From positions 25,703 to 89,702 of IMG/VR virus record IMGVR_UViG_3300048586_000134: a stretch of 64,000 bases of DNA; one strand, written 5' to 3'. Made by a program: the position numbers and the translations under genes. The first letter of the stretch is position 1. Each line of letters starts with the position of its first letter. Source of the DNA: a virus (lineage: Duplodnaviria; Heunggongvirae; Uroviricota; Caudoviricetes). Below are positions 49,324 through 62,435 of this stretch, one piece after another. The notes beneath the pieces are model-generated. The model saw only the letters and a list, made by a program, of their open reading frames with translations. It ran no database searches and was not told the DNA's origin.

Positions 49324-49394
49324 CGGTTCCTCCAAATGGGCGAGACATAACTGCCTCGACGTGTCAGGCTGTACACAATCGCCAGCCAGTCCCT

Positions 49395-49837: not shown

Positions 49838-50124
49838 TTCACCCCTCCACGACCATCGTACTCGATGATCTGCGGCTTGTCAAGCCCCTTGTTGCTGATG
49901 TAGTGCTTGATACCAGCCTGCACCAGCCGATACGCCTTGATCGCGCTCTTGCGTGCCTCTTCCAGCGGCTCACCGAGACTGACCAGCAGATCGTCGCTCT
50001 CGTTGTCCGTGCATGCGCACCAGACGATCCACTTTGTCGGATCGCTTTTCGACTTGCGTGCCTTGCCGACACGCTCAGCGCCGACGTAAAAGACCACGAT
50101 TTCCTGAATCTCCTGCTCGTTCAT
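49834..50124 (-). CDS. hypothetical protein
   Basis: 96-aa ORF. Confidence 0.4.
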   Translation of the reverse strand: MNEQEIQEIVVFYVGAERVGKARKSKSDPTKWIVWCACTDNESDDLLVSLGEPLEEARKSAIKAYRLVQAGIKHYISNKGLDKPQIIEYDGRGGVK

Positions 50125-50177
50125 GCCCTGTCCTTTCTGATTGACCAGCCCTCAGTGGTGCGGTACCACCCTCCTCG

Positions 50178-50206
50178 ATGATAGCAGCTTAGTTGCTCTC
50201 TGTCAA
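50178..50206 (-). promoter_or_regulatory. array promoter TTGACA-17-TATCAT
   Basis: Read on the - strand; overlaps the stop of the HNH gene. Confidence 0.55.
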
Positions 50207-50656
50207 GTGTTCGCATATCCCTCCGTTTCGTCGCTTGCTGTCGTTACAGTTTGCGCACAAGATTTGTAGCGTGTCAGGAAAGTCGTTTTTGATGATCCAG
50301 CGATATGTCTCACTCCCCGATGCTGACCGACGCTTTCCGTTGCTGATTTGCGCACGATGTTCATTACCGCCGCCCTCAATATGGTCGATGTGTAACATAG
50401 TCATCCGATGCTCACCACAACACGCACATTTATTTCCATAATGCTCGAATACTGTTGTCCGTAACTTTTCTCGATACCTCTTGTTTGCGTCCAGCTTATC
50501 AGCCGCATTGACAATCACTAAACAAGCCTGACACAACGATCCCTGTCTGTCAAGCGTCTTGCCACATTTCCCGCACAAGCCCTCCGCTCGTCGCTTGTGG
50601 TACGTCTGTCGTTGCCATGTCGCGCTGTACGTGTCAGATTTTATTTCTCTGCTCAT
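50189..50656 (-). CDS. HNH endonuclease
   Basis: ..MLHIDHIEGGGNEH..LQILCANCN.. is an HNH motif. N-terminal CxxC pairs are present. Confidence 0.7.
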   Translation of the reverse strand: MSREIKSDTYSATWQRQTYHKRRAEGLCGKCGKTLDRQGSLCQACLVIVNAADKLDANKRYREKLRTTVFEHYGNKCACCGEHRMTMLHIDHIEGGGNEHRAQISNGKRRSASGSETYRWIIKNDFPDTLQILCANCNDSKRRNGGICEHLTESN

Positions 50657-50733
50657 GTGTGCCTCCCGTACTGTAGAGACTACCCTATGCAGCCTCTACA
50701 GTACAGTAGCACCGACTACCGAATTAGTTTCCG

Positions 50734-50762
50734 TCCGTTCGGACGAACTCAGGACGGTTGAA
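50734..50762 (-). promoter_or_regulatory. TTGACA -35 with weak -10 (AGTTCG). Its long structured leader contains the 14-bp palindrome CGTCCGAACGGACG plus the hairpin TACTGTAGAG..CTCTACAGTA
   Basis: Read on the - strand, upstream of the HNH gene. May be a regulated promoter. Confidence 0.35.
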
Positions 50763-50778
50763 TGGTTGTCAAGTAGTC

Positions 50779-51090
50779 TTAGCGACACGTCCCATCTTCG
50801 TAGACCACGTACCCCGCTCGCTTCATTTTCGTAAAGTAGGTGCCGCTGAACGGGTAGACTCCATTCCTCGTGAGCGTCCGCTGATAGCCTGCACACGCTC
50901 CCGACCGTCGTACATACGTGCCGCGCTTGCTTCCCTCATCGCAGCCAGTCGCGTGCACAATCTGCGAATCCCTTACGCTCGTCTGTCCGTACCACCGCGC
51001 CCACATCAGGCACTCGCTCGACGCCGACGCGCTTCCACCATACCCGACGAACAGACTTGCCACGATTGCAATGATAACCACAAACCGCAT
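50779..51090 (-). CDS. small secreted Cys-rich protein (Sec signal peptide)
   Basis: MRFVVIIAIVASLFVGYGGSASA-SS.. with 6 Cys in the mature part. Confidence 0.45.
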   Translation of the reverse strand: MRFVVIIAIVASLFVGYGGSASASSECLMWARWYGQTSVRDSQIVHATGCDEGSKRGTYVRRSGACAGYQRTLTRNGVYPFSGTYFTKMKRAGYVVYEDGTCR

Positions 51091-51272
51091 TACCGCGCTA
51101 CCTCCTGCTGAATCCGTCGTGCCTTGTCCTCATTCCACACGATGCCGTGCCGAATCTGCTTGTTGCGCTTGTCTAGCTTGCGCTGCTCCTCCCGCTCACG
51201 CTCGATCCGTCGCCGTTCCGACTGCCGCTGCTGTCGTGCTCCCATGATACTTGCTCCTCTCGATCCTGTCAA
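51090..51272 (-). CDS. hypothetical Arg/Glu-rich basic protein
   Basis: 60-aa ORF. Its start overlaps the next promoter, so it is probably translated from the upstream transcript. Confidence 0.3.
   Translation of the reverse strand: MTGSRGASIMGARQQRQSERRRIEREREEQRKLDKRNKQIRHGIVWNEDKARRIQQEVAR
51244..51272 (-). promoter_or_regulatory. array promoter TTGACA-17-TATCAT
   Basis: Read on the - strand. Confidence 0.5.
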
Positions 51273-51282
51273 GTAGCGTCTG

Positions 51283-51612
51283 CTACGTGGTGGCGAAAAA
51301 CTTCTCGACCAGTGCTTCCAGATCGTCCCGCACGCTTACCAGCGTGCTGATGTATGCCTGTCGTGCGCTGTCGTTATCCTCCTCCTCTACGCCGTCCGTA
51401 ACCAGTGAGTCAAGACGATCTTTGATCGTGATGATGTCCCTGACTTCCTCAGTACTCACGGATGCCCGAACAGTCTTGATCGCCACCGCTCCGAGTGAGT
51501 CCTCGACTTCGTATTCCGCCTCTCTCACGGCTTGCTTTGCGGCATCCTCCTTGTCTGTCGCCCAAACCGTGTGCAAGCTGTCTTGTCGTACTGTAACCTT
51601 GAACCACTCCAT
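51283..51612 (-). CDS. hypothetical acidic protein
   Basis: 109-aa ORF. Confidence 0.4.
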   Translation of the reverse strand: MEWFKVTVRQDSLHTVWATDKEDAAKQAVREAEYEVEDSLGAVAIKTVRASVSTEEVRDIITIKDRLDSLVTDGVEEEDNDSARQAYISTLVSVRDDLEALVEKFFATT

Positions 51613-51619
51613 CTGTCAA
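51590..51619 (-). promoter_or_regulatory. promoter-like TTGACA-18-TACAGT
   Basis: Read on the - strand. It overlaps the annotated ATG of 51283..51612, so either the start or the promoter call is wrong. Confidence 0.3.
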
Positions 51620-51638
51620 GCCTCCTCAGTAGCCGTAG

Positions 51639-51896
51639 CTACACATCGAACTTACGGTCGAATCGATCAGCGGCCTCGGCCTCGTACAGTTCATCTTGGA
51701 AACTCTCGTCAATGTCAAGCACGTCTGCCTCGTAGTGCTTGCTTGCCGCGTCCGAGAGTGTGCGAAGAAAACTTTGCACTGCCTCCTCGACGGTTTCCGC
51801 CACTACATCGAAGTTGACGTAATATCGGTTCATGTCGTTACTCCTTCTCGACCAGACCGTAGCCGTGGATATCCGCGAGTGCCAGCAGAAGCGCAA
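51639..51896 (-). CDS. hypothetical acidic protein
   Basis: 85-aa ORF. Confidence 0.4.
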   Translation of the reverse strand: MRFCWHSRISTATVWSRRSNDMNRYYVNFDVVAETVEEAVQSFLRTLSDAASKHYEADVLDIDESFQDELYEAEAADRFDRKFDV

Positions 51897-52065
51897 GCGC
51901 CTCAGTTGACTTCAGGTGAATGCCTGTCTGATAATCGTACTGGCTCAGGCCAGTGTTGTCAAGATCATACCCGCCGCGAGTCGATGTCAACTCAATCGGG
52001 CTATCGTGGATCACCACCCGCACGTCGCCGTCGTCGCTCGTCCATTTCGTGTACGGCTTGCTCAT
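51838..52065 (-). CDS. hypothetical protein
   Basis: 75-aa ORF. Confidence 0.35.
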   Translation of the reverse strand: MSKPYTKWTSDDGDVRVVIHDSPIELTSTRGGYDLDNTGLSQYDYQTGIHLKSTEALALLLALADIHGYGLVEKE

Positions 52066-52067
52066 GT

Positions 52068-52598
52068 TCAGTCCTCCACTCCATCGAACATGCTGCTAGG
52101 ATAGCACACTCGGCATCCTTCGTCAAGCCACTCCTCATAGTATTCCAGCGGCTCGTCGCATTCGCTACATGTCGGCCAGTTCTCGATGATCGCTTGCCGT
52201 GCATACTCGTAGGCCAGTTGTTGCGCGTCACTGATCCATCGGTCAATGTCGCCGTAGCTTTGCCCATCCTCGCACAACTCATTCATCAGAACCGCGTGCT
52301 TGATGTTCTCGGCCAGCCAGCCAGTCAGCGCCAGCGTTTCGTAATCGGAGTCAGGAAGTACCATGTCCGCGATTTCGTCAGGACCGTTGAGACCGTTCAC
52401 CGCCGCGTCTGAAAGAAGTTCATGAACGTACTCGTATGCCGTATCCTCGTTCATGTTTTCCGCTGCCGCTCGCACCATTTCGCTCAGTGGCGTTTGTTGT
52501 GCGTGATCCCGCAGAAACCAGATGCGCTTGCCTGCACTCGTTACGCGAGTGTCGAACATGTTGCTCATTGCCTCGGTGATCGTGACCAGATCGCCCAT
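52068..52598 (-). CDS. hypothetical acidic protein (start MGDLVTI.., RBS GGAGG)
   Basis: The start lies downstream of the promoter at 52644-52672. Confidence 0.45.
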   Translation of the reverse strand: MGDLVTITEAMSNMFDTRVTSAGKRIWFLRDHAQQTPLSEMVRAAAENMNEDTAYEYVHELLSDAAVNGLNGPDEIADMVLPDSDYETLALTGWLAENIKHAVLMNELCEDGQSYGDIDRWISDAQQLAYEYARQAIIENWPTCSECDEPLEYYEEWLDEGCRVCYPSSMFDGVED

Positions 52599-52643
52599 GA
52601 TTGTCCTCCGTTTCGTCGTGCGGCCCTCGTTGACCACACCATC

Positions 52644-52672
52644 ACTGTACACCATCCTGCCAGCCGTGTCAA
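52644..52672 (-). promoter_or_regulatory. array promoter TTGACA-17-TACAGT
   Basis: Read on the - strand. The upstream gene's TAG stop sits in a GTAGCGGCGGCTAC hairpin 10 nt before the -35. Confidence 0.6.
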
Positions 52673-52682
52673 GTAGCCGCCG

Positions 52683-53142
52683 CTACAAATCCTCGAATGC
52701 GTCGTAACTCGCATCTGTCCAGTAACTAATCGTGCGGTAGATAACCCCGCCGATCTGCCAGCATGCCGCCTGTACAATAGGCATTGCCTCGTAGTCGCGA
52801 TACAGGTTGACGTAATCACCCACTTCCTTGATGTGTTCCTGTGCGAACTCCTTGAACGCCTCGATCATTTTCTTTTCGTCGCTTGCATATTGTAGCAGGA
52901 AGCGGTGCGACGGCTCACCCTGATACTTGACGAACTCGTTTCCGATTGCCGCCGTCCGTCCTCGGATCGTGTATTGATGATTCTCGATGAACGGCCCACG
53001 CTGCATGAGTGCCGCGTATGCCTCGTCATAGGTCGCGAACGAACTTTCATAAAACGGTTCATCGCCGCGAAGATCGATGTAAAACTTGCCGCTGTACGCC
53101 TGACCGATGTTGGCAACCGTGCCGCCGTTGATGTAGTTCATG
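52683..53142 (-). CDS. hypothetical protein (start MNYINGG.., RBS AGGGAGTGCGATC)
   Basis: The start was corrected to lie downstream of the promoter. Confidence 0.45.
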
Positions 53143-53184
53143 ATCGCACTCCCTGTGATGGTAGCCGTTGCTTGACTACCATCA

Positions 53185-53214
53185 CTGTACATCATTCGTC
53201 CATGTCCTGTCAAG
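53185..53214 (-). promoter_or_regulatory. array promoter TTGACA-18-TACAGT
   Basis: Read on the - strand; shares the conserved ACCATCACTGTACA block with 52644. Confidence 0.55.
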
Positions 53215-53223
53215 TAGTGACCG

Positions 53224-53460
53224 CTACCGAATCGACGGTCGTTCGTCGCCGCTGTCGTAGACGATGTAATACTCGTCCTCGTTCACACCCTCCCACGGAT
53301 CGCGGTACACGGTCGTTACACCCATCGTACTTCTCTGAATCTCAGCACTCACGTACTCGTCTTGGAGCGCTTCGTGCGCCAACTCGGATGCCTGCTCGAA
53401 CGTGTCTGCCTCAACAAAGAACTCGGATCGCTCGGTTACACCGACCTTGAAGAATGGCAC
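53224..53460 (-). CDS. hypothetical acidic protein
   Basis: 78-aa ORF. Confidence 0.4.
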   Translation of the reverse strand: MPFFKVGVTERSEFFVEADTFEQASELAHEALQDEYVSAEIQRSTMGVTTVYRDPWEGVNEDEYYIVYDSGDERPSIR

Positions 53461-53509
53461 TGTCGTTTACCCTTCACTTTACTGTCGTTATGCCGTGTTT
53501 CACTGTCGT

Positions 53510-53860
53510 TTAGAACTTGAAGTTGATCGCCGCGTCCTTCTTCGCGAGAATGTCCGCAGCCTCTTTCACGTTGACCGCGCATTGGAGATTGCATTCAAGC
53601 GCCTTCACGCCGTCGTAATTCTGACGCATCAGATCATCCTCGTCAACCGTGCCATAGTTGCGGAAGCTACTGTTGTTCAGCAGCCGCCCGAAGCGTCCCC
53701 ACATCCGCTTGCTCATGGTCACGTAGAAATACCCGTTCTCCACGCGAATCGAGATAACCGTGTTCATCTTGAACCGTGCACGCTCGGCTTCCTGTCGTGC
53801 ACACACATCGCATTCGATGTAGGTCACGGTCGTAAGAAAGTCTTTCGCCTCGTTGTTCAT
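53510..53860 (-). CDS. hypothetical protein
   Basis: 116-aa ORF. Confidence 0.45.
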   Translation of the reverse strand: MNNEAKDFLTTVTYIECDVCARQEAERARFKMNTVISIRVENGYFYVTMSKRMWGRFGRLLNNSSFRNYGTVDEDDLMRQNYDGVKALECNLQCAVNVKEAADILAKKDAAINFKF

Positions 53861-53904
53861 CGGTGCCTCTCCTCGGTGACACGGCCCTCATCGACCGTGC
53901 CACC

Positions 53905-53933
53905 ATGTTAGCCTATCGCTCAGTCGTTGTCAA
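53905..53933 (-). promoter_or_regulatory. array promoter TTGACA-17-TAACAT followed by leader hairpin
   Basis: Read on the - strand. The leader contains GGTGGCACGG..CCGTGTCACC. Confidence 0.55.
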
Positions 53934-53952
53934 GTGCCTTGTGTTGCGTTCG

Positions 53953-54609
53953 CTACTTGATCGGCGCTCCGAAGAATTGTTCGCTGTACCACACTCCCAC
54001 TTGTGGCGCGTAGTCGCCCGTTATGGCATAGTAGGCTTGTTGGCCGCATGTCTCGCTAAAGAGTGCGTGATGTGCCATGCGTGAGAACAGTTTCGCGTGA
54101 CTGTAGTACGCTTTCGTCTCGCCAGCCCATCCGAATGACCCACCCGAAGCGAAGTGACCCAGCACGTCATGCACTGCACGAAAGATGGTGTTGAGCGTCT
54201 CGTTTCGGCCATTGTACCAGATGAATCCCTGATCCAGAAACTCATGGTCGCCAGCGCTACGGAACACTCGCAGCACGCCAGTCTCGTTGAACTCCGCGAA
54301 CGTCTCAGCCGCCGACTTGAAACCCTCCCCTGTCACGTTCGGATCATCGTCCACGAACTCGAACACGAACCCGCGAGAGAGAAGGTAGGCCCACTGCTCG
54401 GCCAGTTCATTCATGAATGCCTCGTAACTCAGGATCAGATCGGCGCGATGTGGCTTGAAGTCGATGCGGTAATCGTTCGCCTGTCGCTCGTAGATGTCGA
54501 AAATCACCTGCTGATAGTCTGTCAGATCGACATCCAGCGTGTCAAGTGGCTTACGCTGGAACGGATAGGCAGTGTGTGCATCGACCGCTGACTGAATCGG
54601 AGTAGGCAT
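53953..54609 (-). CDS. hypothetical protein (start MPTPIQS.., RBS GGGAGAAC)
   Basis: The start was corrected to lie downstream of the promoter at 54653-54681. Confidence 0.45.
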   Translation of the reverse strand: MPTPIQSAVDAHTAYPFQRKPLDTLDVDLTDYQQVIFDIYERQANDYRIDFKPHRADLILSYEAFMNELAEQWAYLLSRGFVFEFVDDDPNVTGEGFKSAAETFAEFNETGVLRVFRSAGDHEFLDQGFIWYNGRNETLNTIFRAVHDVLGHFASGGSFGWAGETKAYYSHAKLFSRMAHHALFSETCGQQAYYAITGDYAPQVGVWYSEQFFGAPIK

Positions 54610-54652
54610 TGATGTTCTCCCTCGTTTGTGGTCCCTCGACCACCGTGCAACC

Positions 54653-54681
54653 ACTGTACCACGTTCGGTTTCGCTTGTCAA
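54653..54681 (-). promoter_or_regulatory. array promoter TTGACA-17-TACAGT (GTG extended -10)
   Basis: Read on the - strand. Confidence 0.55.
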
Positions 54682-54685
54682 GCCC

Positions 54686-54937
54686 CTAGTAGTCGATTGC
54701 CTCCCGCTCGTTGTATTCAGGCTCATACTCGCCGCACGTATCGCAGGCTACGAAGTACTCATCGCGACTTTCCGAACAACACCCACACGCGAAGTAGTGC
54801 GTTTCGGTGTCAATCGTCAGCCTAGCACCCTCGCCGCCGCATCGCGGACACTTGACCGTGTACTCCTCGCGGTCGTTGTACGTGCGAGAACTGTACTCGC
54901 TTTCGTATTCGTCCACGTACTGCTCGTCCTCGTCCAT
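54686..54937 (-). CDS. zinc-ribbon protein (start MDEDEQY.., RBS GAGGAG)
   Basis: CPRCGGEG..CGCC..CDTCGEYEP. Confidence 0.45.
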   Translation of the reverse strand: MDEDEQYVDEYESEYSSRTYNDREEYTVKCPRCGGEGARLTIDTETHYFACGCCSESRDEYFVACDTCGEYEPEYNEREAIDY

Positions 54938-54960
54938 CGTGTCGCTCCTCACTTGTGACT

Positions 54961-54989
54961 ACTGTATCACGTTCGGATCAGGTTGTCAA
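54961..54989 (-). promoter_or_regulatory. array promoter TTGACA-17-TACAGT
   Basis: Read on the - strand. Confidence 0.55.
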
Positions 54990-55138
54990 GTGTTTGCTAC
55001 GATTCGATGCTCCTCAGTGTAGCCGCCGCTACGCTTGATGTCGATGTAAACGCGTGCGGTTTCGAGTGTGACGCAGCGTGCCAGCGGATCAGGCACCCAA
55101 TGACCGCGTGTGAAGTACTCAACCCTGAACGTCTGCAT
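54986..55138 (-). CDS. small hypothetical protein (50 aa; start MQTFRVEY..)
   Basis: RBS AAGGGAGCACGATC precedes the ATG, downstream of the promoter at 55193-55221. Confidence 0.35.
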   Translation of the reverse strand: MQTFRVEYFTRGHWVPDPLARCVTLETARVYIDIKRSGGYTEEHRIVANT

Positions 55139-55192
55139 GATCGTGCTCCCTTGCTTGTGGTGACCAACCCTCGTTGGTGCCGTACAGTCCTC

Positions 55193-55221
55193 ACTATACG
55201 GCACGGACGAATGTTTGTCAA
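55193..55221 (-). promoter_or_regulatory. array promoter TTGACA-17-TATAGT followed by leader hairpin
   Basis: Read on the - strand. Confidence 0.55.
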
Positions 55222-55229
55222 GCCCCTCG

Positions 55230-55970
55230 TTAGTAGCCGAAGATACCAAGATGTGACTCAAAGTAGCCGTGCTGAATCTGCCACATCGCCCACTGTAGCA
55301 CGAATGGCCGATACCCGTTCTGTCGCGCCCACTCGACCAGCGTAGCCTCAAGCATGCGATAGGGCACTTTGTTGACCGTCATGCTTGTCGCCGTGATGCC
55401 ACCCACGAACGATTGTAGCATCCTCAGCATGTGCACGTCAAGTGTGAACACATCGGCGTCACCGTTGAACAAGGCAACCGCCATTGCCGCCGTTTTCTCG
55501 CCCACGTTCCGCAACTTTCCTTGTTTCTTTAGGGCCAGTAGGTTATCCTTCGTCATATCCTCTGGCTCAATGTTGCGGATCGTGTCAAGCGATGTGAAGA
55601 TACCGCGTGCAGCCCCGCCAGCCGTCACCCATGACATCGCGCCGTCGTTCGTCAGGATACGGTAGACATCATCGACCGTCTCGAAGTTGTCATACAACCG
55701 ATCCATGATCCTGCGAGTCGCCGCGACATTGTGACCGAACCAGCATTGCGGTGATATTATCGCGAACACCAGCGACGTTTGAGCGTGCAGTATCGCGTCC
55801 TGTTCTCGCAGTGCATCCATGACTGCCACTTCAGCCGCGATTGCATCCACGTTCGCGTCAATCTCTGGCTTGATGCGTTCCATGTGATTGTTCAGCACCA
55901 GCAGGATACGTGCCGCATCCTCAGCCTTGACCGTGTAGGATGCCTGATCGTGATTGCTAACGCTCGCCAT
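55230..55970 (-). CDS. HhH-GPD superfamily DNA glycosylase (endonuclease III-like)
   Basis: Helix-hairpin-helix plus catalytic Asp: ..LRNVGEKTAAMAVALFNGDADVFTLDVHMLRML.. Start corrected to MASVSNH. Confidence 0.5.
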   Translation of the reverse strand: MASVSNHDQASYTVKAEDAARILLVLNNHMERIKPEIDANVDAIAAEVAVMDALREQDAILHAQTSLVFAIISPQCWFGHNVAATRRIMDRLYDNFETVDDVYRILTNDGAMSWVTAGGAARGIFTSLDTIRNIEPEDMTKDNLLALKKQGKLRNVGEKTAAMAVALFNGDADVFTLDVHMLRMLQSFVGGITATSMTVNKVPYRMLEATLVEWARQNGYRPFVLQWAMWQIQHGYFESHLGIFGY

Positions 55971-56016
55971 GTCTGTACCCTTCCTCGTTCGTGCCAGCCC
56001 ATCGCTGACACTCTCA

Positions 56017-56045
56017 CTATCGCACATCCTCAGCAGGTTGTCAAG
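56017..56045 (-). promoter_or_regulatory. array promoter TTGACA-17-GATAGT
   Basis: Read on the - strand. Confidence 0.5.
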
Positions 56046-56061
56046 TGCTCGTTTGTCGTTT

Positions 56062-56187
56062 GCGCTACAACCCTCCTGCCAGCCAGCCCACTAGTATCAC
56101 CAGCCCATACAACACGCTCGGCACCACCACCCAAGCGATGTTCTGATTGCGAGTCCACTTTTTCGGCGGATAGTGCTTCATGATCGG
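56062..56187 (-). CDS. small membrane protein (~42 aa, below track cutoff)
   Basis: Hand-translated as MAPIMKHYPPKKWTRNQNIAWVVVPSVLYGLVILVGWLAGGL. Confidence 0.3.
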
Positions 56188-56214
56188 TGCCATTGCCTCT
56201 CCTCGCTTGTGTCT

Positions 56215-56243
56215 ACTCTACCAGCCTGTCAAGCGTTTGTCAA
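56215..56243 (-). promoter_or_regulatory. array promoter TTGACA-17-TAGAGT (two overlapping TTGACA hexamers)
   Basis: Read on the - strand. Confidence 0.5.
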
Positions 56244-56344
56244 CCCGCACCGCAGATGCTCAGGACCGTAGCAACTATCACCCACAAGAGAATGAAGATT
56301 GCCGCACCAGTGAGAAGATACCCGATACGCTGTCCGATGCTCAT
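56240..56344 (-). CDS. small membrane protein (~34 aa, below track cutoff)
   Basis: Hand-translated as MSIGQRIGYLLTGAAIFILLWVIVATVLSICGAG. Its TGA stop overlaps the next -35. Confidence 0.3.
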   Translation of the reverse strand: MSIGQRIGYLLTGAAIFILLWVIVATVLSICGAG

Positions 56345-56375
56345 TGCATCCTCCCTGTCTCGCTACCGTGCCACC

Positions 56376-56404
56376 ACTCTAGCACGGTAGCGCCGTCTTG
56401 TCAA
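56376..56404 (-). promoter_or_regulatory. array promoter TTGACA-17-TAGAGT
   Basis: Read on the - strand. An upstream GTAGCGGCGACTAC hairpin carries the TAG stop of 56415..56741. Confidence 0.6.
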
Positions 56405-56414
56405 GTAGTCGCCG

Positions 56415-56741
56415 CTACTCGATCCAAACGACCTTCGCGGGAATGCTCCAATCAATCGCGTCTGCCAGTTGATAGAGCCGCTGTCCCTGTACGATCACCT
56501 GAAAGTGATTGATGAGTGCCGCCGTGTAGTCCGTGCGACTGAATGGCACATACTTCGCGTTTAGGTCAACCGTCCCGATGCAATCCTCAATCGTCCCGCG
56601 TATCGCGGCCAGCGTCTTCCCTCGCTTGACATCGTTATCGTAGCTAAATGAATTGATACCCTTCAGGTTGTCCAGCACGTCCTCGAAGTGCACGATAGCG
56701 TCCGCGAGAATGTCGTTACCGAACAATTGATCGACCGTCAT
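56415..56741 (-). CDS. hypothetical protein
   Basis: 108-aa ORF. Confidence 0.45.
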   Translation of the reverse strand: MTVDQLFGNDILADAIVHFEDVLDNLKGINSFSYDNDVKRGKTLAAIRGTIEDCIGTVDLNAKYVPFSRTDYTAALINHFQVIVQGQRLYQLADAIDWSIPAKVVWIE

Positions 56742-56786
56742 GACCGTTCTCCCTCGCTAGTGGCACCGTCTCTCGATGCCACTAGC

Positions 56787-56815
56787 ACTGTACCAGACTG
56801 CCAAACGTTTGTCAA
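56787..56815 (-). promoter_or_regulatory. array promoter TTGACA-17-TACAGT followed by leader hairpin
   Basis: Read on the - strand. The leader contains GCTAGTGGCA..TGCCACTAGC. Confidence 0.6.
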
Positions 56816-56825
56816 GTAGTCCGTG

Positions 56826-57104
56826 CTACGGATGCAGTGGCAGCACCACCGTGTCCGTATCGTGTGCATTCCCGCGCTCGTCCGTCGCGACCGTCATGAG
56901 CGTGTACATCGTGGCGTCCACATTATTACGCCACATACAATACCGCAACACCGTATCCTCGCCCACGACTTCGCTGATGTTGACCCCGATCACTTCCTTA
57001 TTGTCAATCAGCAACCTGCCCATGTCCAGCGCCGTTGTGCGTGACTGCAAGAGAACGGGAAACGCGTGCGGCTTGTCCTTGACCATCACGATAACCTGAT
57101 ACAT
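56826..57104 (-). CDS. hypothetical protein
   Basis: 92-aa ORF. Confidence 0.45.
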   Translation of the reverse strand: MYQVIVMVKDKPHAFPVLLQSRTTALDMGRLLIDNKEVIGVNISEVVGEDTVLRYCMWRNNVDATMYTLMTVATDERGNAHDTDTVVLPLHP

Positions 57105-57140
57105 GGTGCCTCTCCTCGCTTGTCTCGCTCGACTGTTACC

Positions 57141-57169
57141 ACTCTACCAGACACGGATCAGATTGTCAA
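57141..57169 (-). promoter_or_regulatory. array promoter TTGACA-17-TAGAGT
   Basis: Read on the - strand. Confidence 0.55.
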
Positions 57170-57439
57170 TGCCTCGCTTGTCGCGTTCGCTACATCGAAT
57201 GTCGTTTGCAGCGCCAGCGTCCGACCGTCGCACGTCGTCACGTATTCCCACATGACGCCCGTATTTTCGTGCGAGTCGCGATACAGTTGACGGACCCGAT
57301 GTTCACCCTCGTAAAGTATCGCGCCGTCACAATCGGGAGATGCCACCACCATTTTCGCCAGCGTGGTAGCCGCCGCTACCGTGTCCACATCGAACCGCAT
57401 CAGGCTACCCGACTTGCTGCGAACGTCCACCGTAATCAT
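57158..57439 (-). CDS. hypothetical protein (start MITVDVRSK..)
   Basis: RBS GAGGGAGTGCGGTC precedes the ATG. Confidence 0.45.
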   Translation of the reverse strand: MITVDVRSKSGSLMRFDVDTVAAATTLAKMVVASPDCDGAILYEGEHRVRQLYRDSHENTGVMWEYVTTCDGRTLALQTTFDVANATSEALTI

Positions 57440-57476
57440 GACCGCACTCCCTCGCTTGCTTGCCTCGACTGTCACC

Positions 57477-57505
57477 ATTCTAGCAGGTTGCTTGTCGGTT
57501 GTCAA
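57477..57505 (-). promoter_or_regulatory. array promoter TTGACA-17-TAGAAT
   Basis: Read on the - strand. Confidence 0.55.
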
Positions 57506-57852
57506 CCCCCAATCTGTAGCCTGCACGACAGTCGCATATCAGCCAGTGCGTACATCGCACGTCCGAACTCGCTCACGCATGGTAGCGGAAGATACGCGTC
57601 TCGACCGTCCTTCTTGATGCCGACAATCCACGCCAGCGGAATAAATGTCTGCTCGTAATAGACTACTATACCTAGGTGGCCGTCGTGTGTCGCGCCGACA
57701 CTTTGCTCCTTGATGAAATCCTTACTCACGTCAAACAAATCGCTCAGCTTTTCTTTTGCCTCGTCAATGGCCGTGTACTCGTCCCGTAGTCGATCCTCGC
57801 TGAATGATGCCGCGCCAACAAAGTGCAGTTTACCGTCTTTCCAGTTGACCAT
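57502..57852 (-). CDS. hypothetical protein (start MVNWKDGK..)
   Basis: RBS GGGAGAACGGTC precedes the ATG. Confidence 0.45.
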   Translation of the reverse strand: MVNWKDGKLHFVGAASFSEDRLRDEYTAIDEAKEKLSDLFDVSKDFIKEQSVGATHDGHLGIVVYYEQTFIPLAWIVGIKKDGRDAYLPLPCVSEFGRAMYALADMRLSCRLQIGG

Positions 57853-57895
57853 GACCGTTCTCCCTTGTGAGTGCAGCCCCGACTTGACTGCACTC

Positions 57896-57924
57896 ACTCT
57901 ACCATGCCTGAATCCCGTTGTCAA
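57896..57924 (-). promoter_or_regulatory. array promoter TTGACA-17-TAGAGT followed by leader hairpin
   Basis: Read on the - strand. The leader contains GAGTGCAG..CTGCACTC. Confidence 0.6.
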
Positions 57925-57934
57925 GTAGTCCGTG

Positions 57935-58141
57935 CTACTTGACTTTCACGATCACGCCGTCTTTCAGTTCCACTTCAGCGTACCACTTGTGGTATTCAGC
58001 AGGGCCAGAAATAAACTCCCTGCCATTGCGCGGTGGAGCCTGAAAGAGATAGTAACTCTCGTCAAGTACCACGCGCTCGCCCTTCGCGACCGCTTCCTTG
58101 AATGCCTTCTTGCTCTTGAAGTCAGGAATGATGTGCGCCAT
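57935..58141 (-). CDS. hypothetical protein
   Basis: 68-aa ORF preceded by GGGAGAACGATC. Confidence 0.45.
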   Translation of the reverse strand: MAHIIPDFKSKKAFKEAVAKGERVVLDESYYLFQAPPRNGREFISGPAEYHKWYAEVELKDGVIVKVK

Positions 58142-58188
58142 GATCGTTCTCCCTTGTGTGAGTGTGACCGTCCCTCGACCACACTCAC

Positions 58189-58217
58189 ACTATACCATGC
58201 TGCCAGCCAGTTGTCAA
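58189..58217 (-). promoter_or_regulatory. array promoter TTGACA-17-TATAGT followed by 11-bp-stem leader hairpin
   Basis: Read on the - strand. The leader contains GTGTGAGTGTG..CACACTCACAC. Confidence 0.6.
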
Positions 58218-58222
58218 GTAGC

Positions 58223-58762
58223 CTAGGCGACAATCTCCTCCACGTCTGCCGCCGTTGGAGCCTTACCCCATGCGGGTATCGGTACATAGGTCACACTATA
58301 GCCACCGCTCGACCGTGACACAAGCACCGCGTCCCGCCAGATATAGGCCAGTTGGTAGCCCTTGCTACGCAGCGTGGCAATCGAACGCTTGTTCCACACT
58401 ATCGTGCCGTCATCCTGCACGTCCCGACGCGGAATGCTCAACCATGCCACCGCATCGCCCGTAGGTTGCCCACGCTCATCCCATGCGCTTGTGACCAGCC
58501 ACTTAGGTCCGTACCGTGTCTCCACAATCTTACACGGTACAGGATTGCCTGTCAAGTCCACCAGACCCTCGAAATCGTAGCGTCCGTTACTTTCGGCCAG
58601 TGTCGCCGCCAGATCGTATGCGCGGGCCATTGTGTCGCTCGCCCACTGCGAGAGAAAACCGTCAGTATCAGACCGCTCGAAAGAATCCTCGGACGACTTC
58701 CGCGATGCGCGTGCCATTGCGCGGAACTCATCAGCCGTGTGATCGATCTTGATGACGCTCAT
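58223..58762 (-). CDS. hypothetical protein
   Basis: 179-aa ORF. Confidence 0.45.
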   Translation of the reverse strand: MSVIKIDHTADEFRAMARASRKSSEDSFERSDTDGFLSQWASDTMARAYDLAATLAESNGRYDFEGLVDLTGNPVPCKIVETRYGPKWLVTSAWDERGQPTGDAVAWLSIPRRDVQDDGTIVWNKRSIATLRSKGYQLAYIWRDAVLVSRSSGGYSVTYVPIPAWGKAPTAADVEEIVA

Positions 58763-58806
58763 TGAGATTCTCCCCGCTAGTGCAGCCGTCCCTCGACTGC
58801 ACTAGC

Positions 58807-58835
58807 ATCATAGCACGTCCGACCGTCCCTGTCAA
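58807..58835 (-). promoter_or_regulatory. array promoter TTGACA-17-TATGAT followed by leader hairpin
   Basis: Read on the - strand. The leader contains GCTAGTGCAG..CTGCACTAGC. Confidence 0.6.
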
Positions 58836-58845
58836 GTAGTCGCCG

Positions 58846-59217
58846 CTACACCGCGTATTGCTTGCCCCAATTCCATGACGGCTCACCCTCGTTCTCGTTG
58901 CGCGTGAACTCCTGAATGAAGCGGCGATCACCGCTCACATTGTAGGTTGCCAGCACGAAACCGTCATGTGTGTTGTCGATGATGCGACCGCCGCAATCGT
59001 TGTCCGTGGCATAGCGTACACCATACCGCGTCATGGTGTCAAGCGCATCGGAGTAGTCCTTGCTACCCTTGATCGTGGCGATGACGCGTGGCGTGCCATT
59101 CTCCCAGCGGTTGAACTCGACTACGAAACACTCGCACACGAGATAGTTTGCCGCGTCAAGTGTCTGGCCGCAACCTTCGCAGAATCCCATGACCGTCCTC
59201 CCTTGTGGCGTAGCCAA
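58846..59217 (-). CDS. hypothetical Cys-containing protein
   Basis: 123-aa ORF. Confidence 0.45.
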   Translation of the reverse strand: MATPQGRTVMGFCEGCGQTLDAANYLVCECFVVEFNRWENGTPRVIATIKGSKDYSDALDTMTRYGVRYATDNDCGGRIIDNTHDGFVLATYNVSGDRRFIQEFTRNENEGEPSWNWGKQYAV

Positions 59218-59232
59218 CTCGACTACGCCACT

Positions 59233-59261
59233 ACTCTACCACGTCCGACCGATGCTGTCAA
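59233..59261 (-). promoter_or_regulatory. array promoter TTGACA-17-TAGAGT
   Basis: Read on the - strand. Confidence 0.6.
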
Positions 59262-59271
59262 GTAGTCTCGA

Positions 59272-59604
59272 CTACCAGCGGATCGCCCCGCGCTCAGCCC
59301 CGCGACCGCCGTTCTCATCCGCCCACGCGTTCCAGTGATCGCGATAGTTGATGATCGTATCAAAGTCAAGCGGTCGCCGCATGCACTGAATGGGCCGATA
59401 CTTATAGTCCACAAGTTTGCCGTTCGATGCGCGATAGGTGACGTATGGCTCATCCGTTCGCCATATCCGCGTTATGAACGATCCCGCTTTGAGCATAGCA
59501 TATGCTTGTGGCAGTGTCAAGCCGTCAATCGTTCGGCGGATGTGACCCTGATTCTCGACCGCCAGCACCACGGACGCCGCGTACATACCCTGAGCCTTCT
59601 TCAC
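59272..59604 (-). CDS. hypothetical protein (probable GTG start within conserved GGAGAACGGTC-GTG block)
   Basis: The track ORF start lies upstream of the promoter. The conserved RBS/start block places the start at a GTG. Confidence 0.4.
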   Translation of the reverse strand: MKKAQGMYAASVVLAVENQGHIRRTIDGLTLPQAYAMLKAGSFITRIWRTDEPYVTYRASNGKLVDYKYRPIQCMRRPLDFDTIINYRDHWNAWADENGGRGAERGAIRW

Positions 59605-59646
59605 GACCGTTCTCCTTCGTGGCACGATCCCGATTGACCGTGCCAC

Positions 59647-59675
59647 CACTTTACCACCGTTCCGACCGTCTGTCA
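59647..59675 (-). promoter_or_regulatory. array promoter TTGACA-17-TAAAGT
   Basis: Read on the - strand. Confidence 0.5.
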
Positions 59676-59701
59676 AGTCCCCAGCGTAGCGCCGACTACT
59701 T

Positions 59702-59821
59702 TCGTGCATTCTTTTCCTTCACGAGACAAACTTCGCACAGTTCGGGATTCTCGCGAGTGCACCCACACGAGCCGCACTCCACACACGCGAGATTGTCAAG
59801 ATCGACCGTGCTCATGATCCT
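59702..59821 (-). CDS. small zinc-finger protein (39 aa, below track cutoff)
   Basis: Hand-translated as MSTVDLDNLACVECGSCGCTRENPELCEVCLVKEKNARK. The TAG stop lies inside the GTAGTCGGCGCTAC hairpin. Confidence 0.35.
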
Positions 59822-59875
59822 ACTCCCTGCTAACTATCCCTGAGCGACCATCGCTCATTGGTGGGCTACGTGAGT

Positions 59876-59904
59876 AGCATAGCCCACGGATGAGAGATTG
59901 TCAA
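59876..59904 (-). promoter_or_regulatory. array promoter TTGACA-17-TATGCT followed by leader hairpin
   Basis: Read on the - strand. The leader contains GAGCGATGGTCGCTC. Confidence 0.55.
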
Positions 59905-59923
59905 GACCCTAGTGTAGCGCCGA

Positions 59924-60185
59924 CTACTTCGACAATTCTTCCAGCCGATTTTGAGCACGCATCGCCGCCGACTGATAGTAATAGGCCCGAATAATTGCCA
60001 TGCCGCGCTCGACCGTCACCTGAGCGAGCATGTGTATCTCAGTGAGTGCCATATTTTCGTTCGCGTTGAATACGAAAAGCCGCATTTTGCCCGTATTTTC
60101 GTCAATTTGAACGCGGCCTACTGGTTCGCCACCGAATCCCTTGACGCGGATAACTTTCTCAGTGTCAAGAATCGTGCCAGACATT
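59924..60185 (-). CDS. hypothetical protein (start MSGTILD.., RBS GGGAGG)
   Basis: The upstream part of the track ORF contains the promoter. Confidence 0.45.
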
Positions 60186-60239
60186 GCGCGTGCCTCCCGT
60201 TTGTTCGTGTGAGTGACCATCACTCTCGATTGTGCTAGC

Positions 60240-60268
60240 ATGCTAGCACAATGGGGAACGATTGTCAA
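60240..60268 (-). promoter_or_regulatory. array promoter TTGACA-17-TAGCAT overlapping the 20-bp perfect palindrome TGTGCTAGCATGCTAGCACA
   Basis: Read on the - strand. A leader hairpin GAGTGATGGTCACTC follows. Confidence 0.6.
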
Positions 60269-60287
60269 GTGCCAAGTGTAGCGCCGA

Positions 60288-60458
60288 CTACGCGAGTCGT
60301 GCATGCTCGCCGCGATTCGCGGAGTAGAGTGCCAGCGTAATGCCGACATACTTTCGGCGCAGAAAGTTTAGGACGTTCTCGGCTTCGTCGCGCCGCGTGC
60401 CATTGTGGAGAATCGCATCGGGAGAAAAGTTTTCACCGATAACCACATGGTACGTCAT
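60288..60458 (-). CDS. small hypothetical protein (start MTYHVVIGE..)
   Basis: RBS AGGAG precedes the ATG. It is the last gene of the leftward array. Confidence 0.4.
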   Translation of the reverse strand: MTYHVVIGENFSPDAILHNGTRRDEAENVLNFLRRKYVGITLALYSANRGEHARLA

Positions 60459-60516
60459 GACCAGACTCCTGACTAGAACGGATGTGCGAGTGACCATCAC
60501 TCTCACTAACGCTACC

Positions 60517-60545
60517 AGTGTAGCACTAGTGAGAATGATTGTCAA
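60517..60545 (-). promoter_or_regulatory. array promoter TTGACA-17-TACACT followed by leader hairpin
   Basis: Read on the - strand. It is the outermost promoter of the leftward array. The leader contains GAGAGTGATGGTCACTCG. Confidence 0.55.
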
Positions 60546-60789
60546 GTCTCTTGCGAGACTCGCATCATTCCCGATGGTAGCTTGCGCTACCGTAGGAAGA
60601 TGGTCCTATCTGTCAACTAGGACCATTGCGCTATTCGATGTCACGTTCTTCTTGTGTACGTTCGCCTTCGTTTCGATAGCCAGAGCCGTTATGTTGGCTA
60701 CCACGAACGTACACTCAGAGCGTCAACACTCCAGAGCGCTAAGTTGTCAATGTGCCCATAGAGTCAGCTAAGCGTCCCTCAGTAGTCCG

Positions 60790-61055
60790 TACTACTCACT
60801 AGCTCGCGCCTCCCCCCCTTACCATAACGGACGCTTACGCGTGGTAGCTATGGCAGACGAGTTACAAACATTCGCGAGTTTCCACGAGTAGTCGTGGCTA
60901 CGTCCCTCAGCAGAGCGGACTATGCGCTATGTCGCATGAAGTCAGATAGGTCAGGCCGTTCAATCAGAGAGTGAGCCATCGATGGTAGTCATGCGTTCGC
61001 GTGTCCGTTTCACCACGCGTTCGGCTTACCGCGACCATCGGTGCACCGTGCTATG
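60790..61055 (-). ncRNA. candidate structured non-coding RNA (promoter-driven, no ORF)
   Basis: A TTGACA-17-TAGTCT promoter at 61061-61089 points into ~270 bp with no ORF of 30 aa or more in any frame. The region is dense in short hairpins (CCACGAGTAGTCGTGG, GTAGTCCGTACTAC, ATGCGCTATGTCGCAT, CACCGATGGTCGCGG). Fold and exact ends were not determined. Confidence 0.25.
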
Positions 61056-61060
61056 TGAGT

Positions 61061-61089
61061 AGACTAGCAGAGAATCAGCGCCGTGTCAA
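61061..61089 (-). promoter_or_regulatory. sigma70-like promoter TTGACA-17-TAGTCT
   Basis: Read on the - strand. Confidence 0.5.
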
Positions 61090-61094
61090 GAGAG

Positions 61095-61250
61095 TCAGGT
61101 AGCGTATGCAACAGAGCCGTAATTTTGCTTTGCGAAACAATCGGGGCGCTTACTTCATTCGGCGTGACGCGACTGTTTCCGTAGCTTGACCGCCGAAGCG
61201 GATTTTGTCTCTCGCCGTTCGGTTTCCCGTTCGGCTTGATGTGACTACTA
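61095..61250 (-). ncRNA. candidate small non-coding RNA with UUCG-tetraloop hairpin
   Basis: Lies downstream of the TTGACA at 61270-61275. It contains CCGC-UUCG-GCGG (plus-strand ccgccgaagcgg ~61191-61202) and repeated CCGAACGG. The only ORF (61064..61291) is low-complexity and starts upstream of the promoter. Confidence 0.2.
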
Positions 61251-61485
61251 TGCCATAGCATGAAACCATTGTCAAGCGGTTTCGCAGTCAATTCTAAAAT
61301 TGTTGCGCAACTTGACTACTACGACTCATACTCGAACGGATGTTCTACTAATCAGGATTGTGAGTGTTTATGTCAAGTTGTCTGATAGTAGAACAAATGT
61401 TCTAATCAGGGGATCATTAGCATGGTAAAGGACTTTACTTGGTAACTAACGATTAGTAAGTATGTATCTCTTGACTGACATTGTT

Positions 61486-61835
61486 TCGCAGCGCGTTGCG
61501 CGTGCGTATGTGCGCGTATGCGTATGCGCGTCTCGCACGCGTGCGCATGCATGCGCGTTGCGCGGTTCCAACGTGACGCGAAAAGCGACTCGTTAGCTAC
61601 GCAAAGCAAAGTTTCCTCGCGTATGCGCGTGCACGCGTGTGAGTGGCAGTTGTTGATATAAAACTCAAGATTAGTAATCTCGCAGCGTGCGTATGCGCGT
61701 GCACTGATTGTCGAGTTCTGGATAAAGAACTCAAGATTAGCAATGTAGATTGTTGACTTGTGGATCAACAACTGGCCGTTAGTTTTCTCGCGTGCGTCAC
61801 GCGTGCACGTATGCGCGTGCGAGGAGCTTAGCTAC
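61486..61835. repeat. four alternating purine-pyrimidine, palindrome-rich GC tracts built on GCGTGCGTATGCGCG (Z-DNA/cruciform-prone)
   Basis: The tracts are interleaved with direct repeats AACTCAAGATTAG[T/C]AAT (x2), GATTAGTAA (x3) and TTAGCTACGCAAAG[C/T]AAA (x2). Tract 61497-61531 is 35 bp of perfect R-Y alternation, then CGCACGCGTGCG and GCATGCATGC. Further copies lie at ~61615-61640, 61685-61704 and 61790-61821. Confidence 0.8.
61759..61767 (-). promoter_or_regulatory. DnaA-box-like 9-mer TGATCCACA (1 mismatch) inside inverted repeat TTGTTGA..TCAACAA
   Basis: Plus-strand tgtggatca. It is flanked by ttgttgacttgtggatcaacaa. Confidence 0.3.
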
Positions 61836-62204
61836 GCAAAGTAAATCGGCCCTATTACTTATCGTTACTAACCCCTAGAATCGCCTGTTTGGTGTCGTTA
61901 TGCGGTCACTAATGGTAGACATCATTTTACGCGTGGAATGCGCTTAGAATCGATTGTAGCGCCTTACAGACGTATCCTAGAATTGACGCCAACACCAAAA
62001 ATGCGGTCTTTTACCACGCTAAATAACAGCGTCACTGTTGTTGACTGCCACATAGGGCATTCTTTACTGTCCGTTACTGTCGTTGCTTTGATTCATAACG
62101 ATAAGTAATATCGATTTTGCCTCTTTTCTGACCCAACAGGATTGTTGACGGCCACTAATGAAACCTAACGCCGTTCGGATAGCCTAACGACGTTCGCTCA
62201 GGCA

Positions 62205-62235
62205 TGCGCGTGCGTGCGCGTGCGCGTGCGTAGCG
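62205..62235. repeat. fifth alternating purine-pyrimidine GC tract (GCATGCGCGTGCGTGCGCGTGCGCGTGCGTA)
   Basis: Read directly. Same family as the 61.5-61.8 kb tracts. Confidence 0.8.
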
Positions 62236-62426
62236 TTCGGTTTGGCGAACGTTGTTCGCTTATCCTAACGTTGTTCGGAGTAGGGTACAGTGTTAGGTAG
62301 AGTGGATTGTTTAGTTCTTTACTACTTACTTTATTTCTGCGCGTAGCTATCATAACGTGCGTCACTTACACAACGTTAGCGACCGAACGTTAGCTATGCT
62401 AAGCAAACTATCGCATCTCTCATTGT

Positions 62427-62435
62427 TGATCCACA
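62427..62435 (+). promoter_or_regulatory. DnaA-box-like 9-mer TGATCCACA (1 mismatch)
   Basis: Lies in ttgttgatccacaac, which is related to the 61759 element in the opposite orientation. Confidence 0.3.

Follow-up and report, generated by a model that had tools for sequence, protein, structure and literature searches.

Alternating tracts at the junction of opposed gene blocks

We analyzed a 64-kb stretch of tailed-phage DNA (positions 25,703 to 89,702 of IMG/VR record IMGVR_UViG_3300048586_000134), called the window below and used as the reference for all coordinates, at the place where its two gene blocks meet. Six perfect runs of alternating purines and pyrimidines (R-Y runs) of at least 20 nt lie there, between 61497 and 62232. 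The phage is novel and of virulent type; the window encodes PolA, primase, class II ribonucleotide reductase, thymidylate synthase, a deoxynucleoside monophosphate kinase, and NAMPT, its PolA being at most about 30% identical to any known phage. Genes on the - strand fill 5.7–60.5 kb, a leftward block of about 55 kb that comprises the early and replication genes. The adjoining ~2.8 kb (~60.55–63.33 kb) hold no credible gene and contain all six tracts, together with DnaA boxes and iteron-like repeats; beyond this spacer, rightward genes begin with rsr. The tracts are degenerate, locally duplicated, CG/TG-rich R-Y repeats in a large untranslated control region (Table 1).

A first-pass annotation of the sequence had described five alternating tracts with up to 35 bp of perfect alternation. 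A whole-window alternation scan bears this out: The runs measure 20–35 nt, and the six form five clusters because the first two lie only 2 nt apart. The sole other run of at least 20 nt in the window (3984-4004, 21 nt) falls within a lysin open reading frame (ORF), and the tracts are confined to one region, the window's other intergenic DNA having no run of this length. Enrichment over shuffled controls, which the annotation had anticipated, is large: six runs vs. a mean of 0.026 in 2000 dinucleotide-preserving shuffles of 61401-62300, and 0.09 in shuffles of the whole window. The claimed rarity also stands, with no R-Y run of at least 18 nt in 80 metagenomic rsr loci (535 kb) and none of at least 16 nt in six viral rsr loci; R-Y tracts are thus not a general feature of rsr loci. 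That the tracts differ from one another and have unique flanks argues against an assembly artefact.

Perfect alternation is combined with local repetition. Dinucleotide steps within the runs are led by GC (39) and CG (38), followed by TG (24), GT (23), AT (9), CA (8), TA (7), and AC (5), and tandem sub-periods of 6, 10, and 14–16 nt are found inside the tracts. Tracts T2 and T3 share a core because both belong to ~68-bp tandem units, and T4 matches this core at 14 of 16 positions. Palindromes quoted in the annotation are present (CGCACGCGTGCG at 61534, GCATGCATGC at 61545, CGCGTGCACGCG at 61626). The direct repeats that it gave as flanking pairs exist as well, in imperfect form: AACTCAAGATTAGTAAT pairs with AACTCAAGATTAGCAAT, and TTAGCTACGCAAAGCAAA occurs in three copies. 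Several motif families are restricted to this region, namely TTAGCTAYGCWAAGYAAA (three copies), ACGATWAGTAAK (five), ACTGTCRTTTTG (three), and ACTAGAKA (seven). Irregular spacing and varying tract sequences agree with the earlier statement that this is not a CRISPR array. They also differ from origin iterons, which are 17–22-bp repeats spaced in helical phase: The cores follow one another at 105, 70, 118, and 396 nt, which is out of phase, and they vary in sequence.

A coding role was considered and rejected. The 121-aa ORF at 61406-61771 on the - strand has no Pfam match and, by eye, neither promoter nor Shine-Dalgarno sequence, and a long ORF over the tracts is uninformative because R-Y tracts trivially lack stop codons. 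Pfam, Rfam, and ARAGORN searches of the tract region returned no Pfam domain in the long ORF, no Rfam family, and no tRNA.

Table 1. Coordinates of the R-Y tracts and of the repeats, sites, and gene around them
Feature	Position	Strand	Description
Tract T1a	61497-61531		35-nt R-Y run; TGCGCGT at 61497, 61511, and 61525 (14-nt period); + strand G/T-rich
Tract T1b	61534-61558		25-nt R-Y run holding two palindromes, CGCACGCGTGCG and GCATGCATGC
Tract T1 as a whole	61491-61564		Bracketed by 12-nt direct repeat GCGCGTTGCGCG at 61491-61502 and 61553-61564
Tract T2	61618-61641		24-nt R-Y run; 16-nt core GCGTATGCGCGTGCAC identical in T3
Tract T3	61685-61704		20-nt R-Y run; 16-nt core identical to that of T2
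Two ~68-bp tandem units	61611-61747	+	Each with an R-Y tract, a ~15-nt spacer, and GTTSTKGATAWARAACTCAAGATTAGYAAT
Tract T4	61789-61821		R-Y runs of 9 and 24 nt (the latter 61798-61821) with one phase slip; flanks CTCGC/GCGAG; then TTAGCTACGCAAAGTAAA motif
Tract T5	62202-62232		31-nt R-Y run; three overlapping TGCGCGTG copies; most Z-prone segment of the window
Imperfect palindrome around tract T5	62164-62278		115 bp; 34-nt arms, 76% complementary, made of YTAACGNYGTTCGS boxes; 47-nt centre holds tract T5
TTAGCTACGCAAAGCAAA/TTAGCTAYGCWAAGYAAA repeat, three copies	61593, 61828, 62390 (61593-62407)	+	Each adjoins an R-Y tract or tract remnant; 0.07 matches in shuffles
ACGATWAGTAAK-type boxes, five	61449+, 61667+, 61733+, 61854-, 62098+ (61449-62109)		Strands as marked
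DnaA-box-like cluster	61717-, 61759-, 62427+, 62777+, 62790- (perfect), 62885- (perfect) (61717-62893)		At most one mismatch
Cheo/LexA-type boxes	TCGAACGGATGTTCTA 61331-61346; TAGAACAAATGTTCTA 61388-61403		57 bp apart, just left of T1
Rightmost leftward sigma-A promoters	61061-61377	-	TTGACA-17-TGnTAnnnT at 61275 and 61089; CTTGACA at 61377
Ro60/Rsr (TROVE), N-terminal 222 aa	63334-64000	+	PF05731, 1.3e-18; first rightward gene

Z-DNA potential, promoters, and DnaA boxes

All six runs combine alternation of at least ~12 bp with richness in CG and CA/TG, the marks of potential Z-DNA-forming sequence. To rank them within the window, we used our own simplified Z-Hunt-like B-Z energy model (5-kb domain, no competition model), with approximate dinucleotide energies after the Z-Hunt literature. 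By this model, no other segment of the 64 kb is as Z-prone as any of the six tracts, whose threshold superhelical densities (sigma) are -0.037 to -0.042, in keeping with their earlier description as textbook Z-DNA sequence.

The annotation had also called the region cruciform-forming, a claim that at best may hold for one element. In T1–T4 the internal palindromes span 10–12 bp overall, less than a stable cruciform needs, near-perfect arms of at least ~10 bp around a short spacer are absent, and RNA folds are no better than those of dinucleotide shuffles (z from -1.7 to 0). Significance was reached only by the 115-bp imperfect palindrome around tract T5, whose centre is itself partly self-complementary: With DNA parameters both strands fold at about -31 kcal/mol (z = -3). 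Its extrusion is uncertain, given the imperfect arms and long spacer.

Promoter signals divide the locus sharply. CTTGACA occurs 62 times on the - strand of the window vs. seven times on the + strand, and 45 of the - strand copies have a (TGn)TAnnnT -10 element 17–18 nt downstream, making them consensus sigma-A promoters, all leftward. A relaxed scan of both strands across 61320-63080 found no comparable sigma-A-type promoter, and the only rightward candidates that it gave, at 63082 and 63241, are weak. The tracts therefore occupy a spacer that lacks promoters and separates two divergent transcription units. The minimum of cumulative GC skew falls at the tract region as well; this coincidence is confounded because the gene strand switches at the same place.

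DnaA-box-like sites, reported near the tracts in the first-pass annotation, are present as two perfect TGTGGATAA boxes at 62790 and 62885, rightward of the last tract and beyond the annotated interval, and four one-mismatch sites within 61717-62785. This cluster accounts for 6 of the window's 16 such sites, which here are interleaved with the tracts or adjoin them, and the suggested nearness to an origin is upheld insofar as the tracts adjoin an origin-like DnaA-box cluster. An origin-like module is discernible at 62777-62893, where the inverted pair TTTTCCACA-AAAA-TGTGGATAA is followed by the second perfect box. The same module holds three ACTGTCRTTTTG repeats, two TTTGTCGAA-like (Spo0A-box-like) sequences, and AT-rich DNA.

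We tentatively read the tracts as a DNA-level, supercoil-responsive non-B cis element within an origin or control hub between divergent promoter arrays, a putative function that we consider possible without calling it probable. Divergent transcription would load the spacer with negative supercoils, as in the twin-domain model; the tracts, predicted to be the window's readiest B-to-Z flippers, could absorb or buffer this torsional stress, and the tract T5 palindrome might extrude too. Such buffering would insulate or tune the adjoining origin-like region and promoters. The observations that support this reading are that the tracts exceed chance by far, are noncoding, promoter-poor, and at the top of the Z-prone ranking, that DnaA boxes lie among them, and that tracts like them are also present between the genes of other phages, in either orientation.

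Precedents from plasmids frame this reading. In Escherichia coli, alternating tracts of supercoiled plasmids that lie upstream of active promoters reportedly flip to the Z-form, a finding ascribed to Rahmouni and Wells in 1989. The tracts resemble the (CG)n/(TG)n Z tracts of plasmids in their 20–35-bp uninterrupted alternation, in the dominance of CG, GC, TG, and GT steps, and in lying upstream of strong, divergently oriented promoters, a setting in which negative supercoiling builds up. Unlike plasmid Z tracts, they are natural, multi-copy, of mixed sequence, polar, and never GCGCGC or CGCGCG, and their Z-proneness comes from calculation. Nordheim and Rich (1983), as cited in PMC13174585, dealt with Z-DNA-forming alternating tracts in supercoiled plasmids.

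Several observations weigh against a supercoil-responsive element. The computed threshold sigma exceeds typical unconstrained in vivo values and comes from an approximate energy table. The rightward promoters that would make the region divergent are weak matches (9/12), and no close relative of the phage turned up in any collection searched. Tract polarity is uniform: The + strand of the runs holds 33 T vs. 15 A and 64 G vs. 47 C, and TGCGCGT occurs 10 times vs. 0 on the opposite strand. Z-DNA does not require uniform strand polarity. Z-prone repeats are also hot spots of deletion (PMC13174585 and references therein); the tracts could thus be tolerated junk DNA that was never under selection.

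Similar tracts in other phages and rival DNA-level readings

Searches for relatives of the phage gave none that was close, whether by megablast and blastn against phages or, in IMG/VR, with the TROVE protein, two neighbouring ORFs, and a 17-mer operator as queries. The best TROVE identities were 55% in JGI metagenomes and 54% in a 5.8-billion-protein database, and an exact look-up of PolA returned no match.

Tracts of similar kind were sought in IMG/VR as three nearby TGCGCGT copies, which gave at least 120 loci. Two or more R-Y runs of at least 20 nt were present at 11 loci among the matches listed, and several listed viral loci have, in DNA with few ORFs, closely similar tracts of the GTGCGCGTRT type, the longest of 71 nt; at one (L196), the R-Y tracts occupy a divergent intergenic region beside GGATTGCACAAGG iterons. 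Similar R-Y tracts recur in phage noncoding DNA. No neighbouring protein shared among the phages with R-Y tracts was found, and DnaA boxes near their tracts are weakly enriched (7 in 14.8 kb vs. 8 in 46.8 kb). At the end of another contig (L163, 10377-10633), a (TGCGCG)n R-Y tract degenerates into telomere-like GGGTGCGT repeats up to the end, which may reflect either a genuine terminus or an error of assembly.

Two other searches yielded candidates that were set aside. A 16-mer core search of IMG/VR led to an unrelated high-GC viral family of ~60 kb (L007-L027; e.g., L016, 1095-4683) with R-Y/GCGCGC runs inside long ORFs; its members share the 25-mer GTGCACGTGCGTATGCGCGTGCACG. A paired-core search of GTDB genomes brought up tandem repeats and arrays, none of them related.

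Closest in kind to the window among the matches listed is L175 (IMGVR_UViG_3300032223_002826, 29840-35779). Its GC content (0.52) equals that of the window, CCGG is absent from its 5.9 kb, and its TTGACA-N18-TATCAT promoters with 5' hairpins are of the cassette type seen in the window. A 140-aa protein of L175 and a 141-aa protein of the window (ORF 43555-43977) agree at 15 of 20 residues in a C-terminal motif, DA..AD.IVQMA.FGE.VYG, and may belong to one gene family; the noncoding motif GACGCG..AAAAGCGAC is also common to both. These likenesses make it probable that L175 and the window phage are distantly related; a search for relatives of L175 itself via its promoter cassette found none. R-Y clusters lie in three intergenic regions of L175, their tracts reach 71 nt and run either way with respect to the genes, and TGCGCGT is confined to the first, tracts 2 and 3 being without it. 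The two orientations favour a strand-symmetric, DNA-level property over an oriented RNA, a Chi-like signal, or a motif-specific reading.

The tracts might instead be neutral: microsatellite-like, GC-rich R-Y repeats grown by replication slippage and local duplication, without function and persisting because the DNA there is noncoding. Tandem sub-periods in the tracts and the ~68-bp duplication holding T2 and T3 fit this account. So do a motif count mostly due to composition, the uniform polarity that local duplication would produce, and the scatter of similar tracts over unrelated viral contigs with no common neighbour gene. We nonetheless regard neutrality as unlikely: Phages have compact genomes and Z-prone repeats are easily lost by deletion, each of six differing tracts holds perfect alternation over 20–35 nt, and the tracts are limited to one region beside DnaA boxes rather than spread over the window's other intergenic DNA. 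Their recurrence in intergenic regions of L175, the probable distant relative, also speaks against it.

Motif content bears on whether a protein reads the tracts. An array of oriented cores, (A)TGCGCGT(G) or GTATGCGCGTGCAC, could be bound by a phage or host initiator, partition protein, packaging protein, or repressor. In its favour, TATGCGCGTGC has three exact copies and one with a single mismatch, all on the + strand, tract-derived 8-mers show the highest enrichment of any in the region, T2 and T3 have the same 16-nt core, the motif recurs with a 14-nt period in T1, and YTAACGNYGTTCGS boxes stand symmetrically around tract T5. Random R-Y sequence of the same composition, in contrast, reaches a top 7-mer count of ~6.8 and at least 10 copies in 11% of trials (p = 0.11). 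The 10 copies of TGCGCGT are largely explained by composition and alternation, so the tracts share these two properties and no strongly specific motif. Motif spacing is irregular (14, 14, 27, 72, 70, 118, 393, 10, and 6 nt), identity of T2 and T3 is explicable by recent duplication, tracts 2 and 3 of L175 are without the motif, and tract-bearing phages have no common neighbouring protein. A binding array is thus an improbable reading.

Uniform polarity raises the further idea of a terminus-proximal signal, either an oriented Chi-like cluster that shields an incoming end from AddAB/RecBCD or an injection-stop, nick, or packaging signal like that of the repeat-rich untranslated region of phage T5. 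All cores share one polarity, and TGCGCGTG occurs in the window 11 times on one strand vs. 0 on the other, 10 of the 11 copies falling at 58.7–62.2 kb. The core includes GCGCGTG, the Chi sequence of Lactococcus lactis. Outside the region, however, the strand bias of TGCGCGT (12 vs. 1) is unremarkable, ranking 113 of 2826 7-mers, and a genome-wide Chi-like skew was rejected as not significant there.

In layout, phage T5 offers the closest analogue. Its untranslated repeat region 3, the injection stop signal (iss), comprises ~1.2 kb of repeats, palindromes, clustered DnaA boxes, and a 131-bp inverted repeat-spacer-inverted repeat beside strongly promoted pre-early genes (Davison, 10.1101/866236). 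We compared the window with NC_005859, 9140-10149. Both have a large untranslated region of repeats and palindromes beside early genes, a DnaA-box cluster (TTATCCACA and variants), and an inverted repeat-spacer-inverted repeat of similar size (131 bp in phage T5, 115 bp in the window); phage T5 is also nicked at an oriented GCGC-containing motif, R/GCGCRGG (PMC3517423). The phage T5 region lies in a long terminal repeat and goes with A1/A2-dependent two-step injection, and its longest R-Y tract is at most 13 nt. No sequence or protein homology was found between the window and phage T5. The resemblance is therefore one of layout rather than sequence. A PHROGs scan of the ten nearest early ORFs found no A1/A2-like protein and no function, and tract orientation in L175 is not uniform. 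These points make a terminus signal the least likely of the readings that we weighed.

Protelomerase target sites (N15 telRL and relatives) hold a central alternating TACGCGCGTA within a single perfect palindrome of ~56 bp at the telomere-resolution site. A short, GC-rich R-Y core in phage noncoding DNA is common to these sites and the window; unlike them, the window has six imperfect, non-palindromic tracts and no protelomerase.

Another suggestion of the annotation, that the tracts act as host-defence decoys, fails on site content. Many palindromic restriction sites are avoided in the window (positions 1-60300): CCGG (148 expected), CGATCG (49), AAGCTT (20), CCGCGG (18), CTCGAG (17), and GGATCC (15) are all absent, as are CTGCAG, CCATGG, GTCGAC, GCGCGC, and CGCGCG, and CACGTG occurs once vs. 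12 expected. The palindromes in the tracts (ACGCGT, GCATGC, GTGCAC, TGCGCA) are all ones that the genome tolerates; GCGCGC and CGCGCG never occur there, and a restriction decoy was rejected because the avoided palindromes are absent from the tracts. Complete avoidance of many palindromic sites suggests that the host has numerous restriction-modification systems. Two further suggestions of the annotation, a recombination or packaging signal and sites for a Z-DNA or cruciform binder, are conjectural.

rsr, candidate RNAs, and neighbouring features

The first rightward gene places the tracts 1.1–1.8 kb upstream of rsr, with the better-folding strand being the rsr strand, as for Y RNAs. Seven ACTAGAKA copies (ACTAGAGAC three times) at 63101-63227, which immediately precede the promoter and Shine-Dalgarno sequence of rsr, have the look of operators or iterons. 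Searches for Y RNAs and tRNAs across 60300-64000 and 62880-63340 gave no match to Rfam Y-RNA-type models at E ≤ 10 and, with ARAGORN, no tRNA, spurious miRNA-like hairpin matches being the only other output; a Y-RNA signature search likewise did not find the Ro-binding signature GGTCCGA/TTGACT. The same Rfam models do detect a Y-like RNA (RF01656) 150–220 nt upstream of rsr in two other loci (L029 and L075). In other viral and metagenomic loci (L001, L004, L005, L029, L068, L071, L075), rsr lies within arrays of dozens of same-strand tRNAs. The window has neither tRNA nor Y-like RNA, and the space upstream of its rsr is occupied by repeats and R-Y tracts.

These neighbours admit a different function, in which RNA read from the + strand, the strand of rsr, would have the tracts as its stems, either as noncoding RNAs or as one long leader. 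Such RNAs could be partners or substrates of Rsr, possibly damage-inducible via the LexA-type boxes at 61331 and 61388. The + strand does fold better because of G-U pairs (T1, -51.6 vs. -34.1; tract T5 element, -60.9 kcal/mol with z = -5.0 vs. -42.3), and the region holds three of the four most stable 120-nt windows of the 64 kb. The same-strand rsr begins 1.1 kb rightward, other rsr loci have tRNA arrays and a Y-like RNA where the window has neither, and the two GAAC-N4-GTTC boxes stand just upstream of T1. However, T1–T4 fold no better than dinucleotide shuffles; the core shared by T2 and T3 pairs in different registers, so no hairpin is conserved.

Transcription signals for such RNAs are also missing. 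No credible promoter leads into the tracts, the candidate TTGTCT-17-TCTAAT being without the key A at -11, and no intrinsic terminator follows them: No tract is succeeded by a T-run, and a terminator scanner found none at the tracts. The null results with Rfam and the Ro-binding signature, the lack of long R-Y runs at the 80 metagenomic and six viral rsr loci, and the two orientations of the L175 tracts add to this, leaving a structured RNA quite unlikely. The likeness to YrlA and its relatives consists of adjoining rsr, a better-folding strand that is the rsr strand, and a tract T5 element that forms a 123-nt rod-like hairpin; unlike YrlA, the window offers no covariance-model match, tRNA-like module, Ro-binding helix motif, or promoter, and other rsr loci are without R-Y tracts.

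Control elements of the leftward block adjoin the tracts on the other side. The Cheo/LexA-type boxes flank the last leftward CTTGACA (61377) and back-to-back hexamers at 61372-61383, and GAAC-N4-GTTC occurs five times in the window vs. 1.4 in shuffles. These boxes, extended -10 promoters, and an amidase/glucosaminidase lysin together suggest a Gram-positive host. Across 47000-61400 on the - strand, about 12 promoters form a cassette of GTAGCGGCGACTA, promoter, a 10–12-bp 5' stem-loop (loop like GTCGAGGGAC), and a GGGAG Shine-Dalgarno sequence, with examples at 58218, 57925, 58836, 59262, 59677, 56816, 54682, and 53214; these resemble the promoter-plus-stem-loop (PeSL) cassettes of T4-type phages. 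The 17-mer GAGTGACCATCACTCTC occurs exactly at 60211 and 60487 (within 60211-60270 and 60485-60548), each copy just downstream of a leftward promoter and the copy near 60487 inside a 25-nt inverted repeat. These copies are probably operators. A mechanically called + strand ORF at 60340-60771 is probably not a gene. Farther off, an intergenic gap holds a perfect 54-bp palindrome, GTTTCTAGGTAGAGAAGAAAGAATACT|AGTATTCTTTCTTCTCTACCTAGAAAC, at 36041-36094, both strands of which are among the most stable folds of the window; its arms, CTAGGTAGAG, are similar to the ACTAGATAGAG repeats that precede rsr.

To our knowledge, hardly any natural Z-DNA-prone tract of a bacterium or phage has a demonstrable role. 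The window is a compact and tractable case, with six tracts in 750 bp, opposed promoter arrays, DnaA boxes, and echoes in other phages. Two bolder possibilities can be framed as alternatives, although the pair is a long shot. Either the tracts, whose like is also seen in L175, would be a selected feature of the phage lineage that acts as a torsional switch, in which a B-Z flip or hairpin extrusion at tract T5 would couple a burst of divergent early transcription to firing or silencing of the adjoining DnaA-box origin, or their + strand transcripts would form a novel class of Rsr RNA partners replacing tRNA and Y-RNA arrays. Supercoil sensing or buffering at a phage origin or control hub, if true, would be a new cis-regulatory principle, and RNA partners of a phage Ro60, if true, would define a novel kind of Y-like RNA. 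If the tracts are neutral, they would still mark a lineage with unusual genome hygiene, namely total avoidance of many restriction sites and a consensus promoter with 5' stem-loop before many early genes.

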